The notes beneath the pieces were generated by a model. It was not told where the DNA came from, ran no database searches, and saw nothing but the letters and a program-made list of their open reading frames with translations. A stretch of DNA of 64,000 bases, from assembly GCA_963920595.1 (NCBI GenBank), contig OY986949.1:310001-374000 (forward strand). The letters are read 5' to 3'. Source of the DNA: Eimeria praecox. Lineage: Eukaryota. Shown here one piece after another: positions 5,388 through 56,127 of the stretch. Both the position numbers and the translations under genes were made by a program. Position 1 is the first letter of the stretch; every line of letters begins with the position of its first letter.

Positions 5388-5473
<86 letters not shown>

Positions 5474-7904: not shown

Positions 7905-7967
<63 letters not shown>

Positions 7968-29539: not shown

Positions 29540-30097
29540 CTAAAGCAAGAAACAAGCAGAAACAATCACAGGGGCGTGGTGAAGTTGAGGTAGCACAAGA
29601 AGCATTACGCCAGTATTTGCTGGCGCGTCGCACACTCAAACGCTTATGTTGCCTGCTAGAGCTCTACGTCCCCATCTCCTGGGGGGCGACGGTGCAGCGT
29701 CAGCCCTGGAAATTTCTTTGCAGCATTATGCACTCCCCGCCTCTAAAAGGCTTCCATCATTCCTATATTCACTAGTCCAGGATTCAACCAAATGAAAAGC
29801 GCATACTAAAAAAAGCGCAGTGCATATCGGAAGTATCAGCTCTTACTGAAAGAGCGTCTGCTACGCTCGCTTCATACGCGAAGAGCAAGCCGCACAGTGC
29901 ACCAAGACGCACATGAAATTCGCACATGCCATTTTGCAGAGCTCCTTTTCACAAAGCCAGCACTCTCAGACACTCTCTCCAGCATCTATCAGCTTTGACG
30001 CTCATGCAAGGCGTTGCTAGCCGTGCGCCGACGAACAATCACTCAGCCTTTTTCAACTGGCCGTCTAGCTCATTTCATTCGAGTACATCAAGCTTAC

Positions 30098-33000
30098 TGC
30101 CTGACCAGCACGAAGTCCCGCTTCCAGGTTTGCAGTACAGGTATATGAAGTAGATCACTTCATATTCATATTCGACGGGGCATGCAGCCTATACTTTGCT
30201 CTTACGCCCTTGTTCTCGCCCTAGGCCTATTAAATAGAGCGTACTGCCTGTTGCATGGCATCCCGTGAATTACACAGAAATCTTGTCTCCATTTCTGAAA
30301 TGTCAGTAGGCTACCTGTACTCAATTCCGATGCAAACAACTGAAAGACCCTCCATACGGCTGGGTGCAACAGACGGAGTGGCGGGGGGCTGCCATCAGGA
30401 CTCCCCTTAGAGCACTGGCATTTGCATGCGCTCGAACTTGATACCGCCTAAAATTCCTGCATACCAAGTCGGAAGCTCGCCCTATTTCTCTACGCCCTGT
30501 GTGTTGGCCACACGTACTAACTGTTGCACAGAAAACGCAAAACTCTACGCTGCTCTGCAGTTTGTCGTGTCTCCGAACAGCCTGTTAGGTTCTCATTAAG
30601 CTTACGTCCCCCAAAGTAAAGAATCATCTCAGTCACTTTCCCCTGTCTATTGGCTACAACCATCCGCACTGGCTGACGGAGGCGTGGGGAAGACTTTCCA
30701 GCCTTCCCAGCCATCCTCCGAGCCAAAGCAGACGCTCATGTTTGGAGCATGCAGCGTACTAGCTTATGCAAGAGGGTCGATTGTTCTTATTTTACATGCA
30801 TTCTATCCATTTCTTGCCGCTGCCTTGCATCCAGAATATTAATAGGCTGTGCATCGGTGAGACTGCTCATGAAAAAGATGTGTCTGAGATATGTGAAAAC
30901 ATCTCTGTCTATTCGTGGCCACTAATCACAAGGCGCTACTGAGCCCTCAATCTCGCTAGCGCAAAATGAGGAGGGAATCAGCTTTTGCTCGCATTCAAGG
31001 CCTTGCACGGGGAGTCAATATATAGTTTAAACGTACTGCCTATTGTATGAAATTTCCGCCTCGCGAAACAGCACAGTCTCATGCCTCAACCACGCTTTCC
31101 CAAATCCGTAAGCAGCATGCAGGAAATACTAATGTGCAATCTAAATATTTCAATTCAACAAAAAATGCCCAGAACAAGCAACAGCACGTCCTTACAGGAT
31201 CATCTTAAATTGATGCAAACGACACAATTCCTGCTCGAGTATTGGTAAGAGTTCAAACCTCCCAAGTACATCTGGGCTGCAGCTTAGATGAACAGTGCAC
31301 ACAGCTATATAGCTGACTAACGGATGTGACATACTTGCTTCAGTATGACGCATTCTCGAGCTTAGACCATCAGTGACACCTACTACACTCACCGTGTTGC
31401 AAAACCAACGTCACTTCCTCAACGCATCGAAATCTCCCTCCTTCAACGCTAGGCCCTCTTTAAATTTTCCAAGCTTCTTCTAAAGAGCAGCAAATCTCCC
31501 CAGTTGGCGTACCATACTGATTCTCTGCGGGCTCCTGGCCTCAGCTGCACCCTTTAACGCATGAGGCATTCGCATTAAAGCCATGCAGCACTTAGCGCCG
31601 GCTAGCAAGACTGCTTTGTTACACACTTGCTGTAACGAAGGCAATGTATCATCCCCCTAAAACGAGAATAATCTAGGTACGCTATCTCTGGTGGACGCTG
31701 CAGGGCATATTCATGGCACATCCCGCAACCCAATCTCTTATACGAGGGAAAGCCACAATGTACAGCAGCGGGTTAGAACTTCAGCTATTATTTCCACAGT
31801 CTCAATGCTCCTCATCGTAGTGATTAGTCGCACCATCTAGTATGTACCGCTGCTGAACCGCCATTATAGATTTTGGCATCTTGGCTATCAGCCGAATCGA
31901 AGCCTTGGGCTATCGCCTTGTCTGGCAGAAAACACAAAGGTCACTGCAAGACAACATTTCAGGGGGATATGGCGTTATAAGAAGGTAACAAACCAAAATT
32001 TTTGGGTTCACACGGTGCCTCTGTTGTATGTGCAGCACACAGTAAAGCGTGCGCTAGACGGCTTCCAACATTCGAGCTGCTGCTATAGTCAACGGCAAAA
32101 TTCTGGGATGCATGCCTCATAGGTCCTTCTTACCGCCTGATGCGTGCAATATACCTGCTATAACAAAGAATGCCTGGTCGTCGCTCTCAAGCATGCTCGC
32201 CTAATGCTTGATGCTCATAAATTTATGGCCCGTTTGGTTATTACTCCCCCAATCATGCATCAATCATGCGCTAGAAGTACAACCAACTACAAGAAGAGCG
32301 CTTCCGGCTAAAGCAATGCTCTAGCAGTGTAACCTGCATGAGCCTAAGCGTGCGTGAACCTGAAAACAGCCGTACGTCCTTTTTACACCATCGAATGACG
32401 GTTTACCCACCGTGGCTTGCCGGCAACCCAGCCGCGCTTCCCTCATGGATTTGACTGAAAGAGGCAATGCCAAGTATGGAGAGCAACATCTAGGCAACTG
32501 CTTGTTCCTCGAATTTCCACGTGATCAAGGGATTCTGATGTTAGCGTGAGGCAACTGAAGGGCACCCAGTCGGCCAGCTGCCTCATGCGCACTCTCTAAG
32601 TACCTTGCCACTATATCAAGCCTATTCTATACTGCACGGCACTAGTCCAATCCATTCGGTGAACTTTAGAGCAATATTCGAAGGGGCATGATGCTAGCTT
32701 CAATCATGTGGGGGGCGCTACAGCACTTCTTCCATATTTTGAGTGCTTTTAATGCATTCAACGCCTCCCAATTGATCTTCTGTTCCACGAGATTCATATC
32801 TTCCTCCATGATTCCAGAGTCCCAAGGCGTATTTGGCGGCTTACTGCCTGATGCACACAACCTCGGTAGTGTCCCCCCCTGCTTCGTAACCGTGGCGCCT
32901 TTGGTCGAACAGTTCGAATAGAACGGAAATGGAACTGTGCGGCGGCAAGGAGAAAAATCCTCAGACCAGCAGGGTTCTTGTTAAGGAGCTGAGCCGGCAG

Positions 33001-36000
33001 CGAACCACGTCGCGTCCAATCACAGTAAGACAATCCAGTTCAAATATACGTCCACTGAACGGCTCGTGCTCCCGCTGCAAAGAGCATGCTTTCAGAAATA
33101 TATATCCACTGAAATGCTTGTGTACAAGACCGGGGTTGGAATCATACTTTCTGGTAGGTCGCACTCCCGTCCCCCCCATGGCACATGGGCACGCCGGTTT
33201 CTCACCTGTTAGCCATTCCGCGACTGCTGAGCGCGCGAACAGATAGCATCTTGTGGCACCATTGACCGCTGAAAGATGCATCAGATTGTTATGGTCAAAA
33301 ATGCGCCGCGTGTTTGGCCATAACAATCTGATGCATCTTTCATCCTATTCGCATGCCAGAAACATGACAGGTTCTGAATGCTGAAGGCAGCTCTGCCGCA
33401 AAGCAAATAAAATGCTGCATATTTAAAGCATGCACGCGTGAAATACAACTTCGTCTAGAATTTACGCGTACCTCCTGATGCATGCCATTGCTGCGTTGCA
33501 ACGATCTGCAGTCCCTCTCTCTCCCTTTCGGAGCCACACAATTATTGTACAAAACAGGAAATTTATCAAATAATAAACGCAAATGCTGCCAGTAGCCATG
33601 CCATCTATGAAACATTGAATATTGAATTGTTGAGATGCCATGCTCACCCGCTGATATACCATAGGATTTTAGTTCTCTCGCCGCGTGCTGCAGTTCCAGA
33701 ATCAGCCTAAATGTTTCGGCCTGCGCGGATCCCACGAACAACAGCGACGCACAAAACTGCTAAATTGCCCCTCCGCCAGACGTTATGCTCGCTAAAAGTT
33801 TTTCAGGCCCATTCCTTCTGATGGACCACTGAGAACATCTGTTTTCTCAGCCAATTCAGCCGTCCACGGGCTATGCGGTTCACACATACCTCCTAATGTG
33901 CAGCACTCCCCTTATGGTGCATGCCCCACTGTCTGAGCGAGCTTTTGAAGAAGCCCACCTTACTGGATAGCGAAGCCGGTTCTCGTAAGCAGGCTGCCAC
34001 AATTCTGCTGAAATGAAAGGTCGCCTTGCGTTTCAGAAATGCTTCGGGATCTCTGTATATGCCCATTTAACAAACAAAAGGGTGTGGGCAAGCACCATGG
34101 AGATCGTCGCACCCTCTGATGCATTGCAAGCCTACTGAACCTCGATGTGCGCTCATCAATTCACATCAGCAACAGGATCATAGACCAGCGTACGTGTAAA
34201 CAAGAACCTTCAGTCGCACAACAGCGCTTTTGGAACAAGGGTACTGGCGTTACCTCTGCCAGCCGCATGCCAGTGTCCCTTTACTGACGTGGTGCGCCTC
34301 TGCAAACACATTTGGTGGTTGGATGCCTCGAATGCATTGCTGGAGAGCTTACCAGCTTATGCACACCGCTTTGCCTACTCCACAACGCACATTGTCTACG
34401 CACATTTCAGAGGCACATCCATGATGGATGCCCAGTTCACGCCCCCGGAACCTGAATTCGGTCCAAAACGACGTCACTCAGCCTATGCATTAAACAACAT
34501 GTTCGTCGCGATCGAGGACGGTACGCCCGCCTCCTGTGCGTGGTAGGATGCGTTGAGCTATGCAGCAGTAGCACCGATGGAATTCTTGTTCACGCCGTAC
34601 TGCCTGGTGCAAGAAGCGCTTGTACACTCATTGCACTCTTGTACCACAAGTCTTTCGAAGCACATCCCTAGTCAAAATTTACAAAACGCAGGAGAATAAT
34701 CCCGCAGGGGCAAACGGTGCGCTTGAGAAGGTCCGCCAAAGACGCTGCAAGCTGCAGCAATCATGCGCTTCATCTGAAAGGCCATAGGATCTTGACTGCT
34801 TGGAACATTCTCGCTTCGCAGGTCTTAAAGTCAGTCGTACTGCCTAATGCATGGCACTATTACTCGCACCTATTGAACTTCCCCCAGCATCATCTTCGCC
34901 TGCCACAGCAAGAAGGCAGTTTCTCACCGGCAGAGCCCAAGAATACTCAAAAGAAAAGTTGTGACTTAATTTACCACACGCTGTGTCACTCTCGCTTTGG
35001 CAGTATATACACTTACACAGTCCTATAGGGATAAGGGAGAGCACGACGTATTTTAAGCGGCATCACAGCATGTCGTGTGCGCCTTACCAACAGCCTGCGC
35101 TCACCTCCTGAGTCATCACAGTCCAGCTGTACCGCCGTGCGCGGTGACGTCTAGCCTTGAATTGCCTCGCAAGATGCCAACGCGGTTGCTACCGGTCAAT
35201 CACCACGAGCGAACCTGCACGCAAGGTTCGGCAACTCCTGGAAAACTAACAGCTTGCCTCTCAAGCATGCAGGAGGTCCGCTGACACTGAATGCCTGCGG
35301 GAAGCTTTATTAACTACCAACAAGGCGCGGCATGCAAGACGCCCGGCTGTGGCCTACTAGCTGATGTAAACCACCTTCTTGCTGTAGAGCCTTACATCAA
35401 CTCGCGATTTATTAGCCGTTGGCAACCCATATTATAAATGCGCCAGCGGCTACGTATCGCAGTCCAACCAGATTGGTGCTCGCCTGGAACATGCAGCATT
35501 ACCATTTTGGCATATGATGCCCTACCACTTTCCCTCTTGCACCCAGGGCACTCATTTGGGATGCTATCTGCCTACCGAAGCCTGTTTTAACACTAAGCGT
35601 CCTTGAAAATCAGTTCAGTTAGCAGCATACTGTCTGGTAAGCCACACCCCCTGCACCGGCACAGCACATCCACAGCTCATCCCCTTTGGCCACGCCAACC
35701 TTCCCCTCCAGCATCTGCTGGCAAGGTGTACCGAGAAACCATATGTGATAAAGAAGTGGCACAAGTGTCCTAAACGCAGTACCGCTCTGTGTGGCAAGCG
35801 CCTCACATTCAGACCCCAAAACAGTTAGGGAAAACGCACTACCTTGCTCATGCACGTGGTTGAGAGTCCGAGCGTACGCCCTGTGAACGATCACGAAGCA
35901 GCGCTCAAATGTAGCGCTTTAATCAAGCACGCCGGAAACTCACCCCATTGCCCGTTTCCATGCAACTACGAAACAGCGTACTGCCTAATGCATACAAAAC

Positions 36001-39000
36001 GCAGGGCATTCATTTGGACCTCTGCTATCCACCAACAACCTGCACCTTGGTAGTCAAACTACTATTAGGGAAGGCGAATTGTGTTGCCATCATAATGCTT
36101 GAGAAGTGAGGTGCTTGGAGTGCGGAACAGTACTTTCGCAATTAGCATCCCCTCCCTAAACGAAGTGCTGCAGCATTAGTACTTGGGCGTCTCAGCATTT
36201 ACAGTAAATTTAACAGCAACACCAGTGCAAGTGTTCTATATATCACGCGCACATCCTGGCCCACGAGGATACTGCACCACCATAAGTCAAGCCAGATCCT
36301 AGCATTCCACGCGCAGCTGCACAGAATACACTTGCTTTGAATACAAAAGGCGCGGTACTGCTTTTCATTAAGAGCTAGAATGCACGGAACATCTAGTTGA
36401 TGCAGCAATATTTCTTTCCAGAGCAACTACTCCACCTGTAGGCTAATAATGCCACTAGTCAACTGTGTCATATGTGCCATTTGAAGTTCCCCAAGACCAA
36501 CCTTCGCAGGCGCGGTCTAATGGCAACGCGCACTGCCTAATGCATTATAATGCGTTGGTGTCATTTCTATGCTACAGAATCAGCATAGCGGCCTGAAAGT
36601 AACGCACGCCCATTGCCGACACTACTCCTAAGCACTGCTGGGAAAAATTCGTTTACGCACTTCCAGTCTCTTCTGCCAGTCCTCTGAAACCTTTAGCTAT
36701 TCAGCGCACCAACTGCACCCAATTTTTATTTGCTTACTATGCTACTCACGTAAACATACTCTACATATTGAGCGTACTGCCTGGAGCACCGAGCCCATCA
36801 GCCGTATGCCCGTCGTGTGCGACGAATGTAGCTACTAGAAAAGGTGCAAGTGGCATGTTTGGACAAACTGAATGAAATGCTAGCATCCAATCGGCAGATA
36901 GCCAAACATCTGCCTGTGCTCGCTATACCCCGGCAATATCACGAGCCCATCAAGAACCTCATCCTGCTGAGTGCTTCACGGAAAACTGCTTATGCAAGGG
37001 GCTGACTAACGAGCGTACCGCCTACCACATGATTTCTCGATGCATGCAGGCTCTCTACATGCGTTTTTTAGACCATGGTCCCTGCAATCTCGTTAAGCGA
37101 GCACACTAGAGGTCAACCGTACTTGCTGGTGAATGCGATTCCCCTGGATGGTGCGTGCAAGGTGCTCAGAAGCCAGCCACGAAATGACACACTTCCAGCT
37201 AAGCCTCCACGGACCAAGCGTTTGAGAAACTAAGCAGCAACAGTACCTGGAGGGCTCGCGAGGTGTAAAATCGTTTTCCCCATGGAGGCATCCAGATGCT
37301 GGTTTACCGATGCAAGTACCTCTTACAGCACTCAATTATTAAACAGTCGTCGCGCCGGCATGTATCTAGTGTCCAAACGCACTGCCTGGTGCATAGCAGC
37401 ACAATGACACTAAATGCTCCGGTATCGAACACGCTTCCCCACGCATGCATGTGCGCTTGTAGAAGCGAAGGCTCATCTACTACTAAATGCAGGCGTATTT
37501 AAGCATTCCGATATGCTAGATAGCAATGATCAACACCTCAAACTACTGCAGTGCTTGAAGTGTTACGAAGCACAAATCATGGGCGTGACACGCGCACGCC
37601 AACGAAGTTCATGCGTGTTTCCCCAGTATGGGACGTATAGCAACCACTAAATTCGACAGTGAAATCAACCCTTATCAGCCATCGTCCGCAAATTGGCATA
37701 CACCTGCAGCACTTGTGATAACCAGATGCTGCACACATGACGGCTCACTCGACTACTGCCATGAGGCATTATAACAGAAGCTCCCCCCAGAAATCCCGGC
37801 GCCGCGTCGCGCTTTTAAATTTCTTCAATCACTTGAGTTTGCAACTCTCAGCGGCCCTTGCACTTAGCCTTACATCACCTCTTCAAAGCAATGATGTCCC
37901 TAAAACGTGCACCAGCTTCTTCAGCTCACAGCCACACAGAAGCATGTTCCGGGAACTGTCCAACGCACCCGCAAGATAACACAATAGCACGTAGTTGGCC
38001 ACTTACCCCTTACAAAATGCTCACGCAGATAGACTACGCTTCAAACGCACTGCCTGGTGATGCACGCCATTCCAGGGAAGGCGGCCACAGCTGGCCGCAC
38101 AAGGCATGCCATGGGCATGCAGAACCCCGCCTGCTTACCCACGCTTGCTTATACCACATGGCCCTGCTTCAGGAGGAGCAAAGTCTACCAGGCCACCTAC
38201 GTAGTGCGCTAATGGCGATTGTGCTTACTTCCTAGTTCAGATTGATATCCCAGAGGAAGTGGCTGCCTTGTGCTTTAACCGTACCCCTCAACCCACATCC
38301 CAGGTTCCCAATGGGCATGCTTCCGGTGCAACCGCGTACGGCCAAACAAAACAGTGCCACAAATGTGTAACTGCACCTTTCCTTGAACGGCACAGAGGCC
38401 GCGAGCCACAACCTCCTGGCCAGATCAAAGGCATTCTAGTACCCAGGAGCCTGTACAGCAGGCTTCGTCCATTTCGACGCGCAGCATAGGCGTACTCGCT
38501 GAGGCATGGCAATAGAGGTCCTGCAATCTATGCACAAGGCTTGTCTTTTCACAAACACATGTTTTGCCCTATGCATTAAAAGTGTGTGCAGTTTGAGCTG
38601 GATAATGTTCGATGATATACGACCACAAAATAACCCCAAATCCCTATAGACTTTATACACAGATAACCCTTCTATTTGGCATTCCGTCGAAGCGCCTGGC
38701 CAGAATTTGTTCCACCTTCAGCGATCCCCTAGTCGGCCATTTCATCTGTACCGTACATTCGGAACTTACCGCCTAGTCCATGCACTCCCGTAGTTTGAAT
38801 GAGCCTTCAACCTCGCATGCGATCCGCACTTCAGAAACAAACGAAATCAAGAATCGAAGCGTACCCTCTGAAGAATGCCTTTTATTTAGTTGCATGAGAC
38901 CATACGGCCCTTTTACTGACTGTGGCATGTCGCTCACACACATGTCGCTTACACAAGATGGACAAGATAACGCACATTCGTGAAATGTGAATCTCTTGTG

Positions 39001-42000
39001 ACGGTGTGCTTGGCCCCTACGTTTCCTGGCAGTGTCAAACATGCTGCGATCTTTGCACTTCAACTGCATGCGCCGTCGGTTTTGTCAACACAGTTTAGGG
39101 ACCGAACACCAAACATACTTTCTAATGGGTGGCACTAGCCAATATCGATGCTTGCAGATAGCGTCCCACATCCGCTCCTCCCACGGTTGACTGCCCAACA
39201 CAGCATGTCTAGTGTGAAACAAGGCACTCAAGACTCGACTGGTCGGAAGATGCTGGGGAGCACCCATAGCGGGCTCCAACTCGCACTTGCATGCGTGCAA
39301 CACTGCAGAAGATCACCGATACCAGGCCACTATCGCAAGTTTGGAGCAATGGAGATTCTGCGGTAATGAATAGGAAGACGTGGGGATCGTAGCCAAGCAT
39401 TCGGTGTGAGCCTGTGGGGAACGGTCTCGAGTGCAGGTTTTGGTGACAGTAGCAAATATTTAAGTGAGAACATTGAGGACTGAAGTAGAGAAGGGTCCCA
39501 TGTGGACAGCAATTGGGCATCGGCTAGCGGGCCCTAAGCGAAAGCATAGCTGCGGGAATTTCGGGGCTTTGCTGCCCTCGTAGTTCGCGAAAGGGAGCCG
39601 GGATAATATTCCTGAGCCAAAACGCTGATACGTTACGGTGGCGTGAATGAAATCGTCGACGCAGGCGGGTGCAACGGGAAGCGTTGTCTTTGCTTGTTAA
39701 CAACCTCTTCACATATATATCCTGCAATCAGACTGTATGGGGACAGGTTTGAGAGGTTGGTAGAGTTTCCTGGCTTTCTGGGAGTCCGGTTAGATTTCCC
39801 TAGCATCCTCTCTGATACATCCTTGCTTGAGCATAGTGAAGAAAACAAACCTACCGCCTTTTTGTGCAGTGCATACGCCTATCAATTTAGTCGGCTGACA
39901 TTTGCACGCGGCCACCCATTCGAGTCGCCGAATCACCGGTGTTGCAATCACTATCCTGCCGGCATAGCCTCCACCATACACAATTTTTGGAGGGCACGCC
40001 TACTGCCTGATACGTGACGCGCAAATACCGCAAGAGCGTGCTCATTAATAATACACACAATGCCGCCAGTGCATTCAGCAGGCCAGCACTGCACTCACCA
40101 GAGCCTCACAAATTGCAGCCCCAAGCATACAGCGCCACACAACCGGCGGGGAGAGGGCTTTGCAGATGTGTAGTGCCCTGTCCCGGCGTCTGCAGCACTG
40201 GAGCCACAATTTAACACAGCAAAGCACTCTTCAGTAATTCCGTAGACTCCTGGAAGCCCTTTGAGCTACGGAGTTTTGCATCGTGCATTTTGCGCATGCT
40301 CACGTCCTGAATCCTCAGTGCCAGCTCCCGCCTCACGGCGGTCTTGCTCGTGTTTGCCACTAAGCCCCTCTTAAAAACACTCAGTGGCCTGCACTAGCCA
40401 TTATGCACCGGCAATTTAGAGGATGCGGGTGCAAATCGCTAACAACCAGCAGCTCCCCCTTGCACTCGCGCAACACTGTCGATTTTGCCTTGGGATTTCC
40501 CTAGCATCCTTATACTCTAGGATAAATACGTGCTTGGGCGTAATGAAGCGAAGAAACCTACCGCCTTTTTGTGTAGCTCATGCGCCTATCACTTTAGTCG
40601 CCTGAAGTTTGCAGGCGGCCACATATTCGAGGCGCCAAATTCCCGGTCTTGCAAACATGATGATTTTGAGTACTAACGATAACTGTAATAGGGAATAACT
40701 TGCATGAGCGGCTCAGCCGCGCGATGCCCATCAGCTGGCTGTAGACCGTTGAGAACACCAAACTACAGCCTTCCCGAGCATCCACTGTTAGGGTGCAATC
40801 TCTATGCTGCCGACATAGCCCGCACCATATACGATTTTTGGAGGCCAAGCCTACTGCCTGATACGTGACGCGCAAATACAGCAAGAGCGTGCTCATTAAT
40901 AATACACACAATGCCGCCAGTGCATTCAGCAGGCCAGCACTGCACTCACCAGAGCCTCACAAATTGCAGCCCCAAGCATACAGCGCCAAACAACCGGCGG
41001 GGAGAGGGCTTTGCAGATGTGTAGTGCCCTGTCCCGGCGTCTGCAGCACTGGAGCCACAATTTAACACAGCAAAACACTCTTCAGTAATTCCGTAGACTC
41101 CTGGAAGCCCTTTGAGCTACGGAGTTTTGCATCGTGCATTTTGCGCATGCTCACGTCCTGAATCCTCAGTGCCAGCTCCCGCCTCACGGCGGTCTTGCTC
41201 GTGTTTGCCACTAAGCCCCTCTTAAAAACACTCAGTGGCCTGCACTGGCCATTATGCACGGGCAATTTAGAGGATGCGGGTGCAAATCGCTAACAACCAG
41301 CAGCTCCCCCTTGCACTCGCGTAACACTGTCGATTTTGCCTTGGGATTTCCCTAGCATCCTTATACTCTAGGATAAATACGTGCTTGGGCGTAATGAAGC
41401 GAAGAAACCTACCGCCTTTTTGTGTAGCTCATGCGCCTATCACTTTAGTCGCCTGAAGTTTGCAGGCGGCCACATATTCGAGGCGCCAAATTCCCGGTCT
41501 TGCAAACATGATGATTTTGAGTACTAACGATAACTGTAATAGGGAATAACTTGCATGAGCGGCTCAGCCGCGCGATGCCCATCAGCTGGCTGTAGACCGT
41601 TGAGAACACCAAACTACAGCCTTCCCGAGCATCCACTGTTAGGGTGCAATCTCTATGCTGCCGACATAGCCCGCACCATATACGATTTTTGGAGGCCAAG
41701 CCTACTGCCTGATACGTGACGCGCAAATACAGCAAGAGCGTGCTCATTAATAATACACACAATGCCGCCAGTGCATTCAGCAGGCCAGCACTGCACTCAC
41801 CAGAGCCTCACAAATTGCAGCCCCAAGCATACAGCGCCAAACAACCGGCGGGGAGAGGGCTTTGCAGATGTGTAGTGCCCTGTCCCGGCGTCTGCAGCAC
41901 TGGAGCCACAATTTAACACAGCAAAACACTCTTCAGTAATTCCGTAGACTCCTGGAAGCCCTTTGAGCTACGGAGTTTTGCATCGTACATTCTGCGCATG

Positions 42001-45000
42001 CTCACGTCCTGAATCCTCAGTGCCAGATTCCGCCTCATGGCGCTCGTGCGCGTATTTGTGAGTCAGCCCCTACCAAAACCATCTAGTGGCTTGTATTAGC
42101 CGCTGTGAGTCAGAGACGAAGGGACGGAAGGAGGAACCGGCACGGTTAGGACGTGCGGCATTTAACGTCTCAATCTCGCTGATCGGTTTTGCACCTGAAA
42201 TCTTCGCATATCAGCTATGAAGTTTCAGACTGATCGTTTATACCAGCTTGTGCATGGAGGATATTCCCGAACTGTGAATTCGCATTCAAGCGCCTTCTGC
42301 GACAGCTGCTTCTTCGTGGCCTACAATAGATCCACAACACGTACAGGTGACAACTGCAGAGATGCTGAGTTAGCAAACCACATACCTGTGAAGCATGTGT
42401 AAGGCGCCACAGCAGATGGTTAATATGATCCAAAGCTCTCTACGCTAGCAAGGCTGCATGCTACCTGGAAAGCCGTCACTGCTTCCTGTGCAAAAGGCAC
42501 ACACTCACACATCATCAGGACCTAAACTCAATCATTCGTCCCAACTCGCTATATTCTGTCGGGAAGACAATGCCCTTCTTGCGGAATGACCAACGTAATC
42601 AAAGGATTCCCCAGGATGGCTTGGTATCAATCTTTTATCAATCTTTACACGCGTTCGCGGGGAATTGTGCTTCCATGCGAAGCAGCGATTTACCGTGCTG
42701 CGCGCTGCACTGAAACCCTAATTGCATGCAATAAGGGTAACATATGGTTGCTGAAGCTTGAATGGCTCCTCAATTACAGCCTGCTGCTCAACCACCCCCT
42801 TGAACACACAAAGACACGGGCGTGAAGCAGAGGCCGCGAGCAGCTCTCTACTGTCAGCTGCTAGAGACAGAAACGTTCAAGATAGCAGCTACAGATTTGT
42901 GACGGACATCTTGTGTTGCCAAATGCCATTCAACACGTTTCTCACTTTTGTAATTAAAAAAGCATGCTTCCTAAATCACCGCTTAGAGAGACACCACATC
43001 AATGCCAGTCTCACCGGCTAGCGATTTGGATCATCAAAAGTGCACGCCCGTGTCTGGGAGGAAGCCAGCCTTCACTGGATACGCTTCCATCATTCGCTTC
43101 CGTTATGAAATGGCCTCTATTAAAGGAGCCCTAAATTGCGCAGGTATTCAAGCTGTTCCCGAAATACAGGCGAATGATAAAGCTAGGAATCAAACCTAAT
43201 CGCCAGCTAAAAGTCTGACAAAGCTGCATCCGAGCACAGAAAAATTCATAAATAAACGAGACACAGGAGTAATTCCTCTGCGCACTGCCATTAGTTCTCC
43301 TGAGTGAGCCACACAGCCCTACGGCATGGTGCTTCAAGTGAACAAACATTCATTTGAAGCGCACGACTGTAGGGAGGCGCTTGCCCATGATTGGTCCCAT
43401 TACAGGGATTAAGCGTACTGCCTGCTATGCGGTACACCCGTGATGCCACAAATGCAGCACCCTTCTGCATTTGTTCACAGTTCCTTAATGAAGTACCAAC
43501 CTCTCTGCAAGCTTGAGTGCCAGCATCCTTACTGGAAAAGGGTAATACCCAATAAAACCCCTGTGAGGCTTGGGGACCGTTGTCCTGCAGGCAAACGTTG
43601 TGCCTCTCATGTTTTACACCCCTCAACGTCAACGTCACTTTGCCCTCTTTTTAAAAGAATCTGGCATTTAAATTGCTTTCATGCAAAACCCTGTATAGGA
43701 AGCGAAAGAAAATGCTGGATCTTTAACATCAAGCTTCCATACATGCCTGAATGTGAACGGCGACCCGATGAATGCTGCAAAACCCACGGCAGCCCAATGC
43801 ACCAAACGACGCCCCTCAGACCAGTAAGGAAGGCGTACATCTCAACACGCATTGCATTAAGCTTCTGGTCTGGCACAATGTGCTAGAGGTTCTTGTTCGG
43901 TCGCTTCATCTTCGGGCCAAGACCCGCCCTGGCAAGTAAGCCAGGAACTGGAGAAGATCAGCTGCATGGTCAGTAGGTCGGTGCTGCTTTTTTTCCTATT
44001 TCTCTGGCATACTTCACCCTCTACCGATTTTAGGCGTAGGAAGAGACTCGCTGCTCAGCCAAACCACTGCTCGCAGCTCTATATTTGAAGAAATGAGCAG
44101 TCGTCAAGTGCTGCTGTGCCTTGTCGGGAATAACGTGACAGTCATTCAGACCAAGCGCAATACGCGTCTAACGACAAAGGAGCTTGGGAGCACCCATGCA
44201 GCCAAAGTAAAGGCCCTTGAAGCCGTTTTCTGCAATCGCTAACTACCCTTTCACGTTCATCATATGCGCTGCGCATGACGTAATATTCAGTCACGCCCCT
44301 GCAGAATGAGCGCATGCTTCGGCCTCCTTATTTGCGCTCAAGCATGCCCTGTGAATAATAGCCAGGGCGAATATTCCCTGACATCCCTTCTTTCTATGGA
44401 AATGTGCTCCTTATAAAGCAAACGCAATCGGCTGCTTCGATTTTGCCGCCAGAAGACAAAAGCATTCGAAAGGATGAACGTGCTAAAAACCTCCTAGTGT
44501 GTAGCGTTTGCGCATTATCATTCGCTTGCTCGTAGGCGCGGCGGGCGCACACGCCGCCGCGCCTACGCACGCCGCAAATTTGCCACTGTTCAAGTGTGAT
44601 ATTTGCACTCACTCTCTGTTGCTTGCATGATACTCATAGAGCGGCGAACCATGCCAAAGTAAATATCTTACTGAGCCTGTCGGAAAGCCCATGATTCCTA
44701 TTATGTGTCTCAGACACTACTTAAAAAGGCAATATATGTATTGAAATCATCTATTCTTCCATTCAATTAGCCGGTTGAAACCATGCAGCCGCTTATCTTT
44801 ATGCCTCACGTTTGCAGCCCTGCGCAGCCTGTACTCTCATCACTGCTCAAGCACTGAGTGCTGCTGCACGCAAGGAGTATCAGCAAATAAAGACGTGGAG
44901 GCTCTCCGAAAGCGTCAACGCGGACATATTTCCACCAATGACCTTGTCAATCGAACGTTTCAGATTGGCTAGTTGAAGGCTGCTCTACAGAACACAAACC

Positions 45001-48000
45001 GGAAAATTCAAAGTGACGGCAACTTAGCCACGTTCTGCAATATCCGCATACAGGACGTGCTGGAGCAAGCAAGTCGTTCCAACAAACAACTCCCTATAGG
45101 CTCATCATATGTGAAGGGTGAATCTGCAGGCTTGGATCTGGAGCAGTTCGCGGGACAACTTCCTGTCCTATATCGTTCACAGTGCGTACCTTACGCATTG
45201 GATTATACGAATCATTAGCTGGCTGGCGAGGCGGATTGCTTGCCGTTGCAACTCACGTCCTGGAAAATGGTACACGTAATACAGTTGAAGCTGCTATCTA
45301 ATGAACAAACAGTTCAGAGAAATGGTACACTACAGTTCTCTCCAACTGTTGTAGCTTCTCCCGTAGCAAAGCCTCAGTTTTCATGCCGCTTTTTCGCCGC
45401 CCTGCAAGGTCTCCTCGCACGGTCAGCCTGCAATTCCATTATCATCTAGTATCCGCTGAAGCACTATTTGTGAGCATCGTGCAGGGAGGAAGCCTACTTC
45501 CTGTTGAATGGGTTAAACCATCACTTTTATTTGCCAGGCATACCACCCAAGGAAGCAGAGAGCTTCACTCACAATGTGTTAGCATGAATTCACGCATGCG
45601 ACGTCTGCATTCAATTAAACTGTGGTCATCGTCTGCATTCGTAGGCGCATTCCTCTTTCCCCATAGCCCAAGTGACATTGTCGATTCATGCATGCCCACA
45701 GGCTAGGCATTAAGCTTGGAGAAGCCGCCTATGTAAAAAGCCTGAATATCACGCCTACGTCCTGCTTGTCAGTGCGCCTGTCGAGCACTGTTCCTCTTTC
45801 GTTCTGCCCTACGCAAGCTGAAACCCAAGCGTAGCCTCACGAAATCGGTGCGGACAGACGAACATTCCTGCTCGCTTCTACACACACAGAGTTCCACCGC
45901 TTCGCCTCGCACCCTGGAGTGTATCAAATGCCGCTGGCATCTTGTGTCGTAGGGGGTGTGCATGTCTAGTAATTAGTATACGTACTGCCTAATCAATCAG
46001 CTTCCCCTAGCGCTGGAGACGTCCGCGCTCAAATTACTCTCAAAAACGCCGTGCCAAATGGCAGTGCTTCAGGAACATGTTAGAGCAGGCGTTGCATATG
46101 TTATCAATTATTAAATGATCGTGAGCACGAAAGCAGCAGCAGCAAGGTGTCCCAGGTACGCAGCACAAGATATTTCTAGTTGAGGTCTCACAGTGTTAGT
46201 TGCGTTATCAACACTATCCCGGCCCTTGCAAACTAGGAGGTCAGTTAGCAAGCCTTCAGGCGCCCCTGGAGCACTCAAAAGTGGTTTGGAGCCAGTGCAT
46301 ACTCTCTGAAGCACGAGCATTCCGAGTGCCCTCAGTGCAAACCGCTTCTCACCAGGCATTCATTATCGTCATGCGCATCGTTGTCTGTCCGCGTCTTGAA
46401 CCCAGGTGAGGGGGCAGATATTAACAGGCGGCGTTGGTAAGGGTTGGTCCCAACCCTCAGCTAATACACAACCAATCGCCCCATGAATGCATGACACGCT
46501 TACACAGTGTCAAAGATCTTCTGAATACATGTATATACATGCCTAGCTCCCAAATGCTTTGAAAGCATCCCAAGAACGACCAGCACATAATGCAGGCTTA
46601 CTGCCTGATGCATGACACCCCCACACTAGACGTGTGCCCGCGTGGCGGCCGCATGCCCTAGCATCACGCCACGCCTACTCTAGAAGAAGTGCGGATATTC
46701 GTGTGCAAACAATTCTAACTCGACGTTCCTCGAGCATACGGCTTCAGTACCATTCTCCTGCGCTGCCACCCACCGAAAATGCTCTCCCCTTCGTCCCGAA
46801 TTCCACGCATTTTAAAGCTTGACTCACCAGTGTGGTGGCACGTATCTTGACACTCACAGCCTAAGGCACGATGCTTCCACACTACAAGTGTATATGCCTG
46901 GTCTGTCTATCTGCTCGCTGCGGTTCCGCAATTCCACAGTGTGACTTATCAGGGAGCAACACACGCATACACTGAAGAAGTAAAGGTAAACTTGCGTTGG
47001 CAAGCGGTATAATTGAAGCTTGGGAGTTAGTTTCCAGGTAAGGTGTCAAACATACTTCCTGACGCACGAAATCCCGAAGCCTGCACGATTCATTCCATCA
47101 CTCACCCCTGCTTCACAGTTCCCAACGCAGGCCACTTGTTGAAGGTGGCCACACACGCATGAATCGAGCTCAGCAGGTGAGGCGGCATCTGCTCAGCTTT
47201 GTGCCGCTTTCAGTTCACGAATCACATTATGGACGATTCCGCACACCTGCACTGACGCCCCAAAGCTCTCCGTTACCTCCGAACAAGTGCTCGTCCATTC
47301 ATTCAAGAGCTCAAGCCTACTGCCTGGTTCAGTGCAGTTTTCCTTTGTTGGCATGCACGCACGCGTGCCACTCGTCCAAATAAATTGGTTACCATACAGA
47401 GCTTCCCAGGCAAACAGTATAGCGTGGGGAAACACCTATCAGGACAGCAGACGCTTCCGGTACGTGCTCTTGCAGGCTTTCGAATACATTGCAGCTAAAC
47501 CAGCCAGCACTGGATAATTTCAGAAGCCTATTCGAGCTTTCACATGTTACGAAACACCTCGTGAAAATTGTCAGATATGTGACGGACTGTCTGATAAGCA
47601 AGTATCATGTAGGGATAGCGTGCGTACTTGCCTTCTACCTCTTCAGCCTATCGCTGGCCGTGCACGCTAATGCTCCAGGCAAACGCCAGAGGCCTTACTT
47701 AATCTGTGGCCTTGAGTACAGATGTGCCTAGGATCCGCATCAGTGACATCCTGCAGGCACTGTGGCACAACGTCTGGCACCATCAGAACACAGAGAGCGA
47801 GCATCATTTCAGGGGCCTGGCGCAATCGTCAGTTTAATTTCAGAAAGCAGGCTAAACTCACTGCCTGGAGAATAACACTTTGAGATACTCCCGTACAGCC
47901 TTGAAGCTGGCGAGTTTCTCGTCCGTCGGCCGCACCGCCCAGGCACACGCTCAACCTATCCTTTGCCGATAGGCAAAAGTGGTTAGAGCGCAGTGATCAT

Positions 48001-51000
48001 GAAATACCTGCCTGAGAAATTAAACTAATTGCTTGTCTACACTGCTCCGACTCCACCGAACAAGTTTTCTGTTTAAATACGAAACACGCGCACCATCTGA
48101 TTAACGATAATCAATATAAAAGGCTGCCTCACCGTGGTCTCGGCAGAGAATGCGCTTGGAAAATGTAGAAGCACCCTCGTCAACGCACCACTGCTGACCC
48201 ATCTGTCAGCTCAAACACTTAACCATCCACGGCAGGCCACTAAAGACCCTGAAGTATCTAATTGGATCCACAGAGCGAAGCATCAGCGTTTGCCGCTTGC
48301 TGAAACGTACCGCCTGATGCGCAGCACCCGCCTACTGCCACAAAACACGCTGGCATCTTCTTTATCCTCCATACCATCAGGTTTAATCTGCTTGACCAAA
48401 TGCAGGCTCGTTTCAAACCAATAAACCGTCTGCATGTAGGATGAAACACGCTGGCATTTGATACTTTTCGCCTTCCCATTGGCACGCGCCTCAGTGCTGA
48501 ACTGTGGCACACTTGTTGAAGAGCCTCATCACGTTTTACTTCGTCCCCAGAACTAATCGCGGAAATCGGAATAAGCGCAACTATAGTACATAATTCATAG
48601 ATCTTATTCACAGTCGTAGCGTATGGGCAAAAACCTGCATGATAGCAAGCATACTGCCTGATGCATGGGACTAATCCGATGCCACATTTTATGCTGGTTT
48701 TCTATATGTGAGGCGTCCGACAGTGGGGAGAATTCAGTCCATCAGTCGCAAATGCCTCTAATAATATCCATTTCTTGCCCTCTATGTGAGAAGGTAGGCC
48801 TGGTCAATCCCCCATGCGTTCAAAACACCAAGGATTGAAAAAGCATCGCGGTGAAGCCGCAGTATGGCATCCAAGACAGTAGTTATATGCAGCATGCGGG
48901 GGTCGAACATACATCCTAGTGCATGGCACGAACTTGCTGCATAGGCATGCAGCACTAGTCGATGGTTCTGCCTATTTCCCGCACGTCACACATAAACGTC
49001 CTAACCGGCCTTAAGCACTGACAAAGCTAAGCGGGGCCAACGAACATTGTGCCTACAAGTGATGCGCCATCTTCTGCAGCCAGCTAGGGCCGCTTTTCTC
49101 TGTGCTCCATTCGCGGCAACACTCCCACAGAATAGTATGCGAGGCCTGGCCATTTCAACTTGTTTTCTGGGCAATCGTTTTGGTCTTACACCAGCATGCA
49201 CGCCTACCGCCTGATGCGTAACCCTCGCGCATTGCCACAGCGCAGGGCGTCTGCCATAGAGTAAGCCGGGCCTTCTTATAAAAAAGCTTTCACTGTAAAG
49301 TGGTAAACCCATTAATCAAAAGGGCGAACGAGCAAGAGAGGCCATTCTCAAATCAAGTAATCAAGATAATCAAAAGCATTCAAGCACCGGCGGGAAATCC
49401 CCAACGCTATTGTCGGTCAACGTAGGACTCTTCAAGGTGCGCAAACTGCGGCGCAAGCGTACTGCCTGACATAGAGCAGTCTACTACTACCGCAGTGCTT
49501 GCTGCGTGCTACGCATCAGCCACAGCTTCGCAAAGCGCACCCAAGGTGCCTGCCTTTATTCCATTGTGTCTCTTCCCACCCATCGTGAACAAACAAACAA
49601 TGGACTGCATAATTGCAGCGTCGTGTCCTCATTTTAACAGACTCCTCAAATCTGCGTACAAACATGGTCAAGCACTCTTGCTGCAGTTTTCCGATGTGCT
49701 CAGCCTAGACGTGAAGCGTACAGCCTGATGCATCACGAAGCATAAAGGGTGTGTGCCACCACGCTTGATGCCCGTGTAGTCTAATACAAACGTGCAGACA
49801 ACATTTTATAGGGGGAATAAAACTAAAATTCAGTAGAACAGGAAGACTCTCTTTGCGTGCAGAGTACTCCAACATTACAGTCCCGGTGCTGTTAAGTTGC
49901 CACACGTAACCGACAACACCCATAACCGATAACGCCCAAAACAGATGTACTGTTATTGGTGGTAAACCTTACCGCCTAATGCAAAAGCCTTTCACATAGC
50001 TGTAGTGTATATTTGATCCTTTCAGTTAGCCACACCTCTGGTGTCCGCACTCGATTCTGATGAGGAAGCTCAGGCGCAGTGGTGAATAACCACCCTAAGC
50101 ATGTGGTATGTGGGGAGAGGCCTAGCACCACCGCTATATTCCCATACTGCTTTTTGCAAATGGATTTAAAGGAATCCCACATTGCAGGGCCCCCAAACAC
50201 GGCCCCTGCTTTCCCAATTACCCTCCAGCCGCTGCCTGCGCTCAGGGTTTAAAGGTCAAGCGTACTTGCTGTTGTATAGCATTCCAGACTACCACGCTGC
50301 ACGTCGACACTTGAAGCATACGCACCGCTCTCATTGCTGATGGGCACGTTTTGTTACCAAGGATCAGTTTCAGCTGGTGCCTTGCATCCTGATTGGCTCT
50401 AGTATTCAATGAGGCGCATTTAGCAGTCTTTTGTCTCCTACAAATTTTAAAGTACAGTATGCCTTCGCATTTAGACGTCACTCCTACCACCTGAAGTATC
50501 ACATCCCCCTTCGGCTCGGTGAACACATGCACTTCATTCGTCAGTGAAGAGTCAGTAGCCATTCGAGGTGCACACACATTCATAATCGTCCCAGTTAGCA
50601 AAGGCTGCACTGCCAAATGCTTAGGAGTCCACGGCACCCCCACACTTTAGTTGGGTGGCAACGAAGATGTCCCCCAGCAGCTGCTTCTACCTCACCCGCC
50701 TGTAGGGTAACCGTACTACCTAGTTGATAAATACCTCTACTTTCCACTGTACGGCAATGCATTCCATCATTCAACCATTCCTTTGGGTAACAAAGTGCTC
50801 GTTCGGGAGCATCCATCCCCAATCATCTAATCCCGTGTGTCACGTGCAAGCACTGAATCTCAGGATAGTGCATTATTGTGAAAATGCCAATAACGTAATC
50901 ATAACAACGTCGCACGCTCCATCTATCTTCTAATTAAACTTCCAGGAATCCCGCATTTACGCGTACTGTCTGCATGACGCTTGCATCTTGACAAGATTTC

Positions 51001-54000
51001 CCCCTGTTCATTACTTTGTAGTCAGCCTCACATAATCAGCAAAATGAAGTACTCCTGCAAGGCTAAAACCTACGTGAATTCGACTTCCAACAAACGATAT
51101 GTCCACTCCCTGCCGGTGCAGATTAATAAGCATTGATACTATCTCTGGAAAATACAGTAGGCACTGCAAGGCTTTACACTTTCGCTGGAAGCCTGCTAGG
51201 CTTGCGGCTCACTCCAACACGCCAGATTAATTAGGCTATTGCCTATATGTAACATGTGCTGACGGTGAGGCAAAACGAACCTCCTGTAAAACGAATATCT
51301 GCCATGTGGCTTGTTTCTTGTCAGCATGCATGGCAGTTCCAGACAAATGCAAGCATGATCTGGCACGTTATTGGCCTACCTACCACGCTGATGTACTTGA
51401 GCTCTGTCGCCACTATTCCAAATGATTCAACAGGGGTGTTGGTAGACAGTCCAGCGAACGTGCTGACCAAATAGCTCTCACACACGACACTCGAGCCTAA
51501 AAGGCAGCCACCTAGGTTTTTGAGAGGTAGGGGAAAGCACGGGAAGAAGGCTTTATTTGGGACAAATAAAATCCCCAGTGAAACAATATTTTCAAGATGC
51601 ATGATATAATCCTGCACGTTTTGGTAAGCAGATGTTAAAATGCAGTGAACAGAGTGCGCGTCCCCCTGCTGCCTACAGGGCATTGTCATCAGCAGGCATC
51701 CGCGTCTCCATCATACTACATTGTTAGTCGCACTTTGTGGTCCATATAATACGCAAATGAAACCCTCAAGGTTTTATTGCCTGCTAGACAGTGCCAACGT
51801 GCTGACAATGAAAATGCCGCGTTCGCGTATGCAGGCTCCCGCGAACGCGGCAGAATCACGCAAGGATGCCACAACCCAGATTTGGGAATGCGACTATCGT
51901 CTTTACCTCGTTTCACCTGCCATCCGCCTCGAATGCCTTTAGCCATCATCTGCCTATGCTGCAGCATCGCGCCGCACGCTCCTCCTCACACTTTCCCGTA
52001 AGCGCATTATCTCCCTGTGCTTAGCATAGACAATTTCATCCCACAAACCCTGACGCCTACTATCTACGTATAAACACATTCCAGTCCGGCACTACTCCTC
52101 TTGCGGCTTTCTGTCAGTTTTTGGTGAATGCAGGACCGGGCTGCTATGGAGGGACTTCACAGCTAACGCATCGCAGGAACATAATCTGCCGTCCGACAAC
52201 TTCACTAGAATATGGATAGGAGGCTTTTTGCGGAAAGCGCACTTTCTGTAGAGCATTGATTTACCAAGTATTGGGCTCTACTGGATCAGATGCTTCAATG
52301 AACCACATCCTGATTCCGACGGAGTTGCCACCACTAAGGATATTTCTCCTTTTAATTTATCTTCAAACAGTGAAGTTCCTTTTACCTGGTTGGAGGCGCC
52401 ATTGCCAGCACATACATTCACTGATCTCTATATAAAAGGCAACACAAGCCCCACGAAGCGCCGGGCTAGACGGAAGGCTCATGATAACCTACTACATTAC
52501 TGTCTGCTGCATCACTGTCCACAGTCCTTGTAAGTGAATCCCTCGCCGCCACCTAGGACGTTAAACCTGCCTGATCCAACTTGGAAACAGCGTCGCAGAA
52601 GCTTGGGGTTTCAATTCGGTTACGCAAAACCTTGGACACCCTCGCAATCTTGCTGGTACAGTGTAAGCGAAAATATTCATTCCGGAGCACTCTACCCATA
52701 CGTCTCCCCTCGCAAGCTACCAAGGCGCCACCAACTGTGTTTATTGTTTTGGTCCGGCAGAAAACCCCATAGCGCAGCGTGGCGTGCCTGTGAAACTTAC
52801 AGCCTGTGCAAGTGGCAAGATTTGACGCGCTCTTGCATGCATGCATGCTCTATCTGAAAGGTATAAATGCATGCGACTGTGTCCACCCGCTTGCTTCAAC
52901 ATTGGCGCTCAGTCTCTAAAGTGTACTAGAAATCTGTTCCTTTTTACGCAGCTACGCACTGCCTGCAGCTCCGAAATCCCCTTTCGGTTCGCACCGCAAG
53001 CAGTGTAAACAAGCAGTGTGGCAATGACTGTTGCTGCAACGAGTCATTTATTTCCACCGCTGTCTGTGTAGCCGTAACCTGGCTCAAGGGCAACGGTCCG
53101 CCGGAAGTATCGAAACGCAGCAGCATGCGGAAGTCTCGAGCGGAACATTCTACAGGACGCCCACACTTTGTGTAGGTAACCCCGCATATGCTCACCATCT
53201 AGAGGCATGAGGAATTGTGCTACACATCTAAATGGGCTCATGCAGGCGGTACTGCACCACGGCTTCTAACGCATTCGCAACAAAGATCGTTCAACGCATT
53301 GCTACATACCAAGGACAGACTCTTCAGGGCTGGCCCCAACTGCCAAAGAGTGGTATTTAATATGCCTAAACTGCTCCAGTTCCCCAAAATGTTTCTGCAC
53401 CGCTGTAGCCTCGCCAGACCACTATGCGGATAGAAGCGCCAGCACGCCGATTTAACCAAGAATGGGTTGATGCGACTCACTACCCTATAATCTATGGCAG
53501 CTGCAGCATACTTCCTGCACAAACGTTATGCCGCGCAGTTGTGTTCCGAATAGGTGAGGCCAATACCCAATCCTTCACAATAAATATGCCAACCATTCAT
53601 CAACGCGTAGGCTGACGGACTCGTTGTATAGCAGCCACGCAGCTTGTCATCATAGCAGTGCTGATCCTTGCTTGATCATACTGCCTGCATCACGATATCT
53701 GTGAACTACATGCTGCAGAATTCAGCCAAACTATACGACAATGATACGGCGGGAAACGGCGTTACAGAGCTTTCGTCACGCTGCTTCCGCTTGGCCTCAC
53801 TGGTTGTACCATACTTTTAACCTTGCCAATGAAGACGTGTTTATCATGTCCTTGCCTGGCTTCTACACGTAAAGGCCCGTCTATCTCAACCAAGAAGCAA
53901 CCGGCATGCATTGCTAGACGCCCTAGCCTGCGAACCGTGGGAACTCCCGTATGTACTGGCGCATCGTTTCATGCAGACGCCCTCGCTAGAGCCACAAGCC

Positions 54001-56127
54001 GCTCTGCTGCATCTCCCTGCACAGCGCTGCTTGTTATCCTATACCGGGACTTCAGGCGCCGTACATTGAAAATGCGTGGAAAACGTGGAGGGCACGCGCT
54101 ACAGTTAAAGCCGGGAGGCACTCTGTTGATTCGTGTACCATGCAGCACACAATCGTGCTCAAGCAGAGCGTTCACTGTTCGTTGAGCGGCTACCACTGCT
54201 TGCTACTGCGGTTTATAGGGGGAGGCCCCGTACTGGTAATATGATGCCTCACGGGCAATTTTTCAAGTTTCCGCTGTTCCCCCAAACCCTGATAATTAGC
54301 ATTCCCGATATAGCTTCGCCCCCTACCCTACCGCTTGCCTACATTCTGTGTAGCATGAGGTCGGATTGTACGGCTATTCGTGCGCTGATATTCATATACA
54401 TGCTTTAGTTCCCATACTGCCAATATACCAGCAATGCCTTGCGCAGTCAGAGGACAATGAGCGCAACAGAGTGGTTGACCTGTTCAAGGCTAACGCTATA
54501 ACCCTCCTGAGCAAGCACGCACTTTCTGTAGCAGCATAAATGTGTACTGGATGCTGCAAAGCTGAGCCCAAATGCGCGAGAAAGGTACAGTCAGATATAC
54601 CGTTTGCAGCAGCTTCCACGATGAGCTCAGTTGATCCAATGCGTCATATCATGCTTCCACCGCTGCCAAAGGTGGGAGCCCTTTGCCTCAACTGGCTCTT
54701 AGCCACCAAAACCCCTCCATCGCACTCGGGATGCGAGTGGTAGTACGCGCACACAGCGGCATACCAATCTTCAACCCTCGATTTTGTAAATCGTACAAAC
54801 TCGCACATGTTCTGCAACACCGCTCCGTGCAGAAACCCACGCTAGAGCCGCGGGTGGGATTCTGCTCCATCACCCTCTATTACCACGCCTGGTGTTCTAT
54901 ACAGCACCTCTGAACCATTTGGTCCAAAACGTTCTGAACACCGCACTCTGTACCAATAAACACGTACTTCCTGCGGAGAACGCCTGCCACTGCGCGGCAA
55001 TCGCTGGTTTCAAGCCCCTGTGATGCACAGCTGCCTTCACATTTCGGGTAGATTCTTCAGGGCGTCCTATACAATAGCAAACTCCAGTCTAACTGCATAT
55101 ATCGGTTCTTGTGGTCATTAACTAGAGGCGTCTACAGGCCACTGACATCTATGAGCGTACTGTTGTCACAGAAGTCTTGCAGCACAAACACGTTCGAGGA
55201 TCACAAACGCAGCTTTGACGCCATGTCAGCGTTCCCACCTACAAAGAGCGTGAACTTCCCCAAGTACGCGCAAGGGACGGAACATCCACTGCATACTGCC
55301 TGTGTAGGAAGATACCAGAGTGCAAGTCCAGAGGCAAAACTCTAAAACCCCCATACAACCCACACTCTCTGCATCGGCCGCTTTGAGACTTTCCAGGGCT
55401 GCACTCTCCAAGCGGGTTCCGCAAGGAGGACGCCTAGCGCTCTATGAAGCTCACCAGCCATTCTTAAACACCAGCAAACGCTTGTAAGTCATCCTGACAC
55501 AATATATGTCAAGCTCGCTTACGCCTACATTGGGAGTCCATTTGCCTGCATGGTTCGTGGACAGCCTAACTAACATTCACACAGCAACTGCCACGGATGA
55601 GCGAACTTGTTGCAATGGTTTGTAATATGCCTAATTCAACTACAGCGAGCGGTCAACCTAACCTAACTCTGCACAGCAACGGCTAGTATTCATCGTTCGA
55701 TGCGCAAAACACAGCCAAAAAGGAGAGCAAAGCTGAGCAAAGCTATTGTGCACGTATAGTAAAAACTCGCGAAGCAAATGTAAAGTCACATAATTGAACC
55801 TGGTGTGAGCTCTGTCACGTACCAAAAAGCAAAACCCTGCCTACCGTACTCTTCCTCTCCCACCAGTTCACGGACAAAACAACGGTCATAGACAATCTGG
55901 ATGGCCAATATGACACAGTGCAGCATAGCGACGCTGCTGTGGACATTTGCGAGCCGCCGGGAAGTATGCAACGAAATGCTGTTTAGAAGTGAGGCGTTAG
56001 GCCGCTCCTGGTCCCGTGATGCTCTATGTTTGACACCAGACCACGGCAAATGTAGGCACCCCCCCATCTTCCACTTCGCGGTAGGTTCAGCAAGCGTGCA
56101 CTACAGACAGTACCGCAATCTTACTTC
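30098..56127 (-). CDS. Putative micro-exon gene segment made of about 85 single-codon (3-nt) exons; predicted Ala/Glu/Arg/Asp-rich alpha-helical low-complexity protein (partial; termini not located)
   Basis: Minus-strand AG|NNN|GT sites, given as lowest coordinate and codon in transcript order: 56125 GAA, 55297 GCA, 54968 GAA, 54523 AAA, 54343 AAT, 53682 GCA, 53512 GAA, 53196 ATG, 52960 GCA, 52801 GCT, 52501 ACA, 52243 AAA, 52061 ATA, 50967 ACA, 50717 GTA, 50488 GTG, 50266 CAA, 49973 GCG, 49722 GCT, 49463 GCA, 49208 GCG, 48913 GAT, 48655 GCA, 48311 GCG, 48094 ATG, 47862 GCA, 47588 ACA, 47321 GCA, 47056 GAA, 46858 GCT, 46602 GCA, 46303 AGA, 45986 GCA, 45759 GAC, 45498 GAA, 45257 GAC, 44613 AGA, 43419 GCA, 43015 CCG, 42778 GCT, 42006 GAC, 41706 GCA, 41413 GCG, 41155 GAC, 40855 GCA, 40562 GCG, 40304 GAC, 40004 GCA, 39855 GCG, 39119 AAA, 38865 AGG, 38770 GCG, 38496 CGA, 38229 GAA, 38051 GCA, 37383 GCA, 37123 CAA, 37019 GCG, 36778 GCA, 36534 GCA, 36253 GAT, 35982 GCA, 35840 GTA, 35631 ACA, 35358 CTA, 35105 GAG, 34841 GCA, 34601 GCA, 34353 CTG, 34113 AGG, 33890 GAG, 33648 CGG, 33472 GAG, 32845 GCA, 32593 AGA, 32376 GAC, 32134 GCG, 31834 ATG, 31627 CAA, 31335 CAA, 31037 GCA, 30760 CTA, 30518 TTA, 30245 GCA, 30098 GCA. 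A few may be chance matches and some exons are probably missed in the gaps. Confidence 0.72.
39790..42100. repeat. Tandem repeat with 851-bp period (about 2.5 near-identical copies plus a diverged, shortened partial copy)
   Basis: CCTACTGCCTGATACGTGACGCGCAAATAC recurs at about 39999, 40850 and 41701; the ORF track repeats at 40014/40865/41716 and 40594/41445. Confidence 0.95.
44531..44567. other. Perfect 14-bp GC-rich inverted repeat (hairpin) with a 9-nt loop
   Basis: CGTAGGCGCGGCGG (44531-44544) and its reverse complement CCGCCGCGCCTACG (44554-44567). Confidence 0.85.

Follow-up and report, generated by a model that had tools for sequence, protein, structure and literature searches.

The minus strand of a 64,000-nucleotide stretch of contig OY986949.1 (the window) carries, between positions 30098 and 56127, a long array of three-nucleotide units, each framed by an upstream AG and a downstream GTRNG. 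About 80–95 of these units are likely, judged from the DNA, to be exons of one codon each in a single, old protein-coding gene. An initial annotation had proposed that skipping of these exons diversifies the encoded protein one residue at a time. As an architecture the array is striking, and the evidence for it is good; its role in diversification is a hypothesis, and the support cited for that role mostly fails.

Extent and splice signals of the array

Counts of the pattern YAG-N(k)-GTRNG on the minus strand across 29.5–56.5 kb gave 84 sites at k=3 and 5–22 at each of the 39 other lengths between 0 and 39. On the plus strand YAG-NNN-GTRNG occurred only four times, a strand bias of 84 versus 4. 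The 84 strict sites, which fall within 30098–56127, compare with 9.1±2.9 in 200 dinucleotide shuffles, of which the largest count was 17. Their spacing, typically ∼255 nucleotides (nt), is also more regular than chance, since 54% of site-to-site gaps measured 190–350 nt as against 22±4.5% under random placement (largest 42% in 10,000 placements). When CAG, TAG or AAG acceptors were all admitted, the number of canonical sites was 94, and subtraction of the mean for other lengths (∼13) leaves ∼81 real ones. No exon length other than three stood out upstream or inside the gaps of the array, and neither GC donors nor AG/GT sites of zero length were enriched.

Selection by site score and spacing alone produced a chain of 87 exons, in which phase 0 is open and the other phases contain five and one stops. 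We also used an 88-exon set, in which AAG-GCG sites replaced two low-scoring CAC picks of this chain and one more AAG-GCG site was included; block scores and the tests of score spread and periodicity are based on the unedited chain. The main array (30098..56127, minus strand) is thereby predicted to hold ∼80–88 three-nucleotide, phase-0 exons, with introns of 151–360 nt in 75 of 87 cases and of 641–1410 nt in seven, and a coding fraction of 1% of 26 kb. The frame symmetry that the initial annotation ascribed to every exon follows by construction, and its two bounds coincide exactly with the outermost sites, at 56127 and 30100–30098.

That span was correct but too short, as 12 further three-nucleotide candidate exons lie upstream on the same strand at 57025..63946 (12 versus 2.8±1.9; largest 9 of 200 shuffles). 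At scores above 9 this extension contains 11 sites of length 3, compared with 0–5 at other lengths. Its sites lie 344–906 nt apart, roughly twice the spacing of the main array, and its residue mix differs (Arg, Thr, Cys, Ser, Leu). One of the 12 candidates is an ATG at 57933, behind a strong acceptor. The most upstream site, 63946, is 54 nt short of the end of the window and, since sites continue to this point, the 5′ end of the gene likely lies beyond it.

The earlier proposal argued for graded inclusion from heterogeneous sites, citing AAG acceptors and three weak donors. The surplus of sites falls entirely among canonical donors: GTRNG donors numbered 94 compared with 9–20 at other lengths, whereas non-canonical donors numbered 87 compared with 64–103. 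Combinations of a good acceptor with a weak GT donor occurred eight times at length 3 and 0–14 times at lengths 4–12, and among 44 sites picked by AG-GCN-GT alone the donor was canonical in 37, the other seven falling within the 5–22 seen at other lengths. The three cited donors are indeed present after three-nucleotide triplets, but as a class weak donors are at chance level, and the argument for graded inclusion built on them fails. AAG acceptors, by contrast, are enriched before strong donors (7 versus 0–1 at lengths 4–12, three of the seven being copies of one site), and one was kept intact in a duplicated copy otherwise ∼80% alike. The exons behind AAG acceptors are those at 41415, 40564, 39857, 34355, 32378, 31337 and 30762.

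Considered singly, the three triplets before weak donors, all on the minus strand, fare differently. The ACA at 47588..47590, before GTCCGT, with neighbours 274 and 267 nt away, is probably a real exon judged by its position, even though its donor class is not above chance; the ACA at 52501..52503, before GTAATG and 300 and 258 nt from its neighbours, is a plausible one on the same grounds. Each splits a double-length gap, and spacing is the sole support for both. The GCT at 42778..42780, before GTAATT, lies outside the chain in a poorly resolved stretch and is indistinguishable from chance.

The extended acceptor consensus is near ATGCATCAG, without a pyrimidine tract or clear branch motif. 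In 59% of exons the last base is A; followed by the G of the donor, it forms another AG four bases past the acceptor.

Site scores vary along the main array. They are weakest in the 5′ block (50970..56127, minus strand), which is partly uncertain and averages 10.6 over 17 exons, against 14.4–17.2 in four other blocks; the best-resolved of these (45257..50969, minus strand; mean score 17.2) has 23 consecutive three-nucleotide exons 198–344 nt apart. From the sparse minus-strand stretch at 42009..45256 the chain takes only 44615 and 43421, leaving either introns of 641–1410 nt or missed or decayed exons, and a search there for a longer exon gave no stand-out. The 3′ block (30098..35633, minus strand) again has 23 consecutive three-nucleotide exons, with Leu and Met at roughly helical spacing, a periodicity that is nominal only (p 0.04–0.14). 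Block-wise scores of this kind could reflect regulation, in which ∼100 introns slow or gate maturation as detained introns, or blocks are switched by life stage to yield a few length classes in place of a combinatorial cloud. The 1% coding fraction would suit such control, as would the delayed introns that often flank plant microexons (50/69; PMC8831610). No block-specific regulatory motif was found, however, sequence information outside −11..+8 being near zero, and the weak 5′ block may just contain more false picks, so that we regard control of blocks or timing as improbable.

At the opposite end the array appears to finish in a stop near 29845. The candidate start of a terminal exon (29843..29845, minus strand) has an in-frame TAA right behind its acceptor and would follow a 252-nt intron, although the acceptor scores only 3.9. 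Stops lie within five codons behind 9 of the 13 listed acceptors 3′ of the last exon, two of which open with a stop.

Encoded residues, introns and surrounding sequence

The 84 strict triplets comprise 33 Ala, 9 Glu, 8 Arg and 7 Asp codons among others, and no stops; in the edited chain Ala accounts for 36 of 88 codons. Coiled coils and single alpha-helix rods have a helix-favouring composition, as defined by the helix-propensity scale, and the array shares it: Pro, Gly, Ser and stop codons are absent from 56 strong exons (60 less four duplicates), where 7.5±1.7 were expected from permuting bases within codon positions, and none of 20,000 such permutations reached zero. One-step neighbours of GCA follow the same line, with GCG found five times, GAA three times, GCT and ACA twice each and GTA once, while CCA, TCA, GGA and GCC are missing. 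The main array is accordingly predicted to encode an Ala/Glu/Asp/Arg-rich helical segment, which would form an alpha-helical rod. Pfam returned no families in the 20 frames tested of the 75 in the window that are at least 110 amino acids (aa) long.

Comparison of 75 introns with one another yielded five of 2,775 pairs above the shuffled maximum, all of them within an 851-bp tandem triplication (39793..42101, minus strand) whose units each contain three three-nucleotide exons (GAC, GCA, GCG) and three introns. An origin of the array through insertion of one transposon-like intron family found no support, the introns being mutually unrelated. The third copy of the triplication is shortened and its last part is ∼80% alike. 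Site and codon positions differed among the copies in 0 of 72 comparisons, against 65 of 1,394 for other positions; ∼4 would be expected, giving P about 0.02 by simple arithmetic on comparisons that are not independent. In the ∼80%-alike copy the corresponding figures are 0 of 12 and 26 of 146. That introns diverged while sites stayed is a pattern unlike that of a dead array. These comparisons indicate that the array is old and maintained, with one recent three-exon triplication, an example of the way in which such arrays can expand, as far as checked on this window.

One intron, of 733 nt between exons 39857 and 39121, holds in antisense a degenerate fragment of eukaryotic large-subunit ribosomal RNA (rRNA) at 39495..39835 on the plus strand (Rfam RF02543, 86.9 bits, E 5.3e-19), which marks the organism as eukaryotic. 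Read depth over this fragment is very high, and it had no match among plasmids. Together with the seven long gaps and the lack of a firm terminal exon, the fragment might suggest a pseudogene, dead or dying, or a non-coding repeat relic that mimics splice sites. We consider this very improbable, because the sites are strong although the introns are mutually unrelated, stops and helix-breakers are avoided, sites are unchanged in the diverged third copy and the strand bias is strict.

Two read runs from one sample of one study (X1 and X2), inspected over 28700–48600, left none of the 30 bins uncovered, in introns as elsewhere, and the three joints listed there all lacked splice-type ends; the runs behave as DNA. 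Both contain a second sequence type ∼88–90% alike, with a depth between roughly one-fifth and one-third of that of the main type; it would represent a paralog, another strain or a related species. Its 16 listed differences outside repeats include none in site windows; as these windows make up 3.7% of positions, about 0.6 was the expected number, so that the result is uninformative, most differences being unlisted.

Downstream of the array, the minus strand of 1–29800 carries nested duplications (550 bp seven times, ∼2.4 kb three times, offsets of 6.8 and 17.7 kb), with CA microsatellites inside duplicated units at 5389–5496 and 7906–7965. Some AG-NNN-GTRNG sites persist there in diverged copies though the triplet changes, from ACC to AGC or the reverse at 15616, 13248, 9996 and 6481, and between AGG and GAG at 25722 and its copies. 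After de-duplication this region has 18 families at length 3 and 8–16 at other lengths; it is possibly a second microexon gene, which is not established. G exceeds C on the minus strand throughout 1–64000 (skew 0.11–0.16), as if the window were transcribed one way.

Inclusive splicing and exon skipping

On balance we favour a model in which about 80–95 one-codon exons would be spliced stepwise and mostly inclusively, with skipping as a low leak. Most of the signals conform to one standard type, and most exons are therefore likely kept, not shuffled; the uniform canonical donors of the array fit inclusion, and constitutive human brain microexons carry stronger site motifs (PMC8831610). The splicing machinery cannot occupy both ends of a microexon simultaneously (PMC8831610), and an exon of 3 nt is too small for both complexes at once, which points to intron definition across the ∼255-nt introns. 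Each intron would be defined across itself and removed in turn, its codon merging into a growing exon. The array would have expanded by tandem duplication of intron-plus-codon units, the older introns having since diverged beyond recognition with sites and residue class kept. Skipping would then be a low per-exon leak, most of it at AAG acceptors, at two or three weak donors and in the weaker 5′ block, and would give a graded series of in-frame products that lack a few residues, a loss tolerable to the protein; it would not be a selected generator of diversity. With 88 exons some skipping is likely hard to avoid, as the computed full-length share is 41% at 99% inclusion per exon, 17% at 98% and 1% at 95%.

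Several observations weigh against this model. Site scores spread somewhat more widely than draws from the matrix (standard deviation 4.5 versus 3.7), mainly through the weaker 5′ block, and that matrix was trained on these same sites, with no baseline from ordinary introns. G is the usual last exon base before a donor, from which the predominance of A-ending exons departs. The seven introns of 641–1410 nt suggest that the span of two ordinary introns is within reach, making skipping feasible, and the one published array of codon-sized exons, in the nank genes of the truffle Tuber, is reported to be alternatively spliced. For the all-included product, 2 of 15 tests of heptads, i,i+3/4 charge and register fell nominally below 0.05, namely salt bridges in one block (p 0.006) and the large-hydrophobic moment in another (p 0.042). 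A few founder codons could yield part of the codon bias, and a residue set confined to helix formers suits a skipping-tolerant design equally well.

The same facts can be read as selected combinatorial skipping, in which many exons are included at intermediate, independent rates and the deletion forms are themselves the product, for example at an interface with host or non-self. The earlier proposal was right that skipping is possible, since all exons are symmetric and encode helix-favouring residues, and any subset would remain in frame and helical. Inclusion of 95% per exon would indeed leave almost no full-length product; the enriched AAG acceptors and weaker 5′ block offer places for variable inclusion, and precedents exist in Tuber nank and in the Schistosoma micro-exon genes (MEGs). 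TGCATGCA occurs 24 times against 2.0 expected, counting both strands, with TGCA and GCATGC enriched too, and has been called a motif peculiar to some apicomplexans (PMC3505466); the excess is a weak hint at a coccidian-like parasite. Yet weak donors are not above chance, and no exon for a signal peptide or membrane anchor was found in the window, the 5′ end of the array likely lying outside it. With Ala so frequent, the 88 possible single skips would give 70 distinct proteins (18 duplicate another), and codons are identical among the duplicated copies, all of which makes the product poor material for antigenic variety. Selected skipping is, in our judgement, possible but unlikely. The fuller picture of a parasite gene of ∼100 one-codon exons, spliced combinatorially into a cloud of helical proteins with single-residue deletions and register shifts, we consider quite unlikely.

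Relation to known microexon systems

A literature search, largely outside subscription papers, found no report of an apicomplexan array of this kind or of any array of comparable length, and no look-alike of 28.6–40.6 kb was found. A search with a three-exon pattern, present twice in the window, returned three metagenome loci, none of them related: two were minisatellites of short period and the third was a bacterial repeat gene. The two minisatellites (L001:1-1543 and L003:1-1674, with units of 17 and 15 bp, respectively) mimic AG-NNN-GT and are a source of false microexon calls. An array that is 1% coding and has no frame to match would escape the usual gene finders and read aligners, and more such genes may therefore be unannotated.

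In contrast to the single codons found here, MEG exons are several codons long. The locus resembles MEGs in that its coding sequence consists mostly of tiny symmetric exons that could be dropped without a frameshift; every coding exon detected in 30098–63946 is 3 nt, and hence symmetric. MEGs are described as having small symmetric exons (up to 75% of the coding sequence), a signal peptide, skip variants and secretion, the cited transcripts showing as many as seven such variants for a gene (PMC4015677). They mostly have a 5′ signal peptide and appear to be secreted, whereas the present array is known from its DNA.

In exon size the array resembles the Tuber nank genes, which are reported to be diversified through alternative splicing of codon-sized microexons (PMC4986451) and likewise have several such exons in one gene. 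They encode an NLR-like receptor, however, and their alternative splicing has been reported, whereas the locus here would encode a low-complexity helix from about 80–95 exons. NACHT and ankyrin domains of the nank type were not among the results of the Pfam search (no families, 20 of 75 frames covered), the 5′ part likely lying beyond the window. The locus shares its construction with MEG and nank arrays, and membership in either family beyond these structural features is not shown.

Isolated microexons of 1–15 nt in plants and animals are similarly too short for both site complexes and include constitutive and regulated examples (PMC8831610). The cases described there occur singly or in pairs between ordinary exons, in contrast to the about 90 that are consecutive here; the regulated exon of RPS24 is likewise 3 nt long. 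Under inclusive splicing, a spliceosome would join the exons of the array with an accuracy above 99% apiece, and the locus, with its differing intron sequences, site scores and positions, would offer a natural experiment on intron definition and the order of splicing. Under combinatorial splicing, the locus would vary a protein by single residues on a scale beyond that of MEGs and the truffle genes, with a finer grain than any other splicing-based variation system known.

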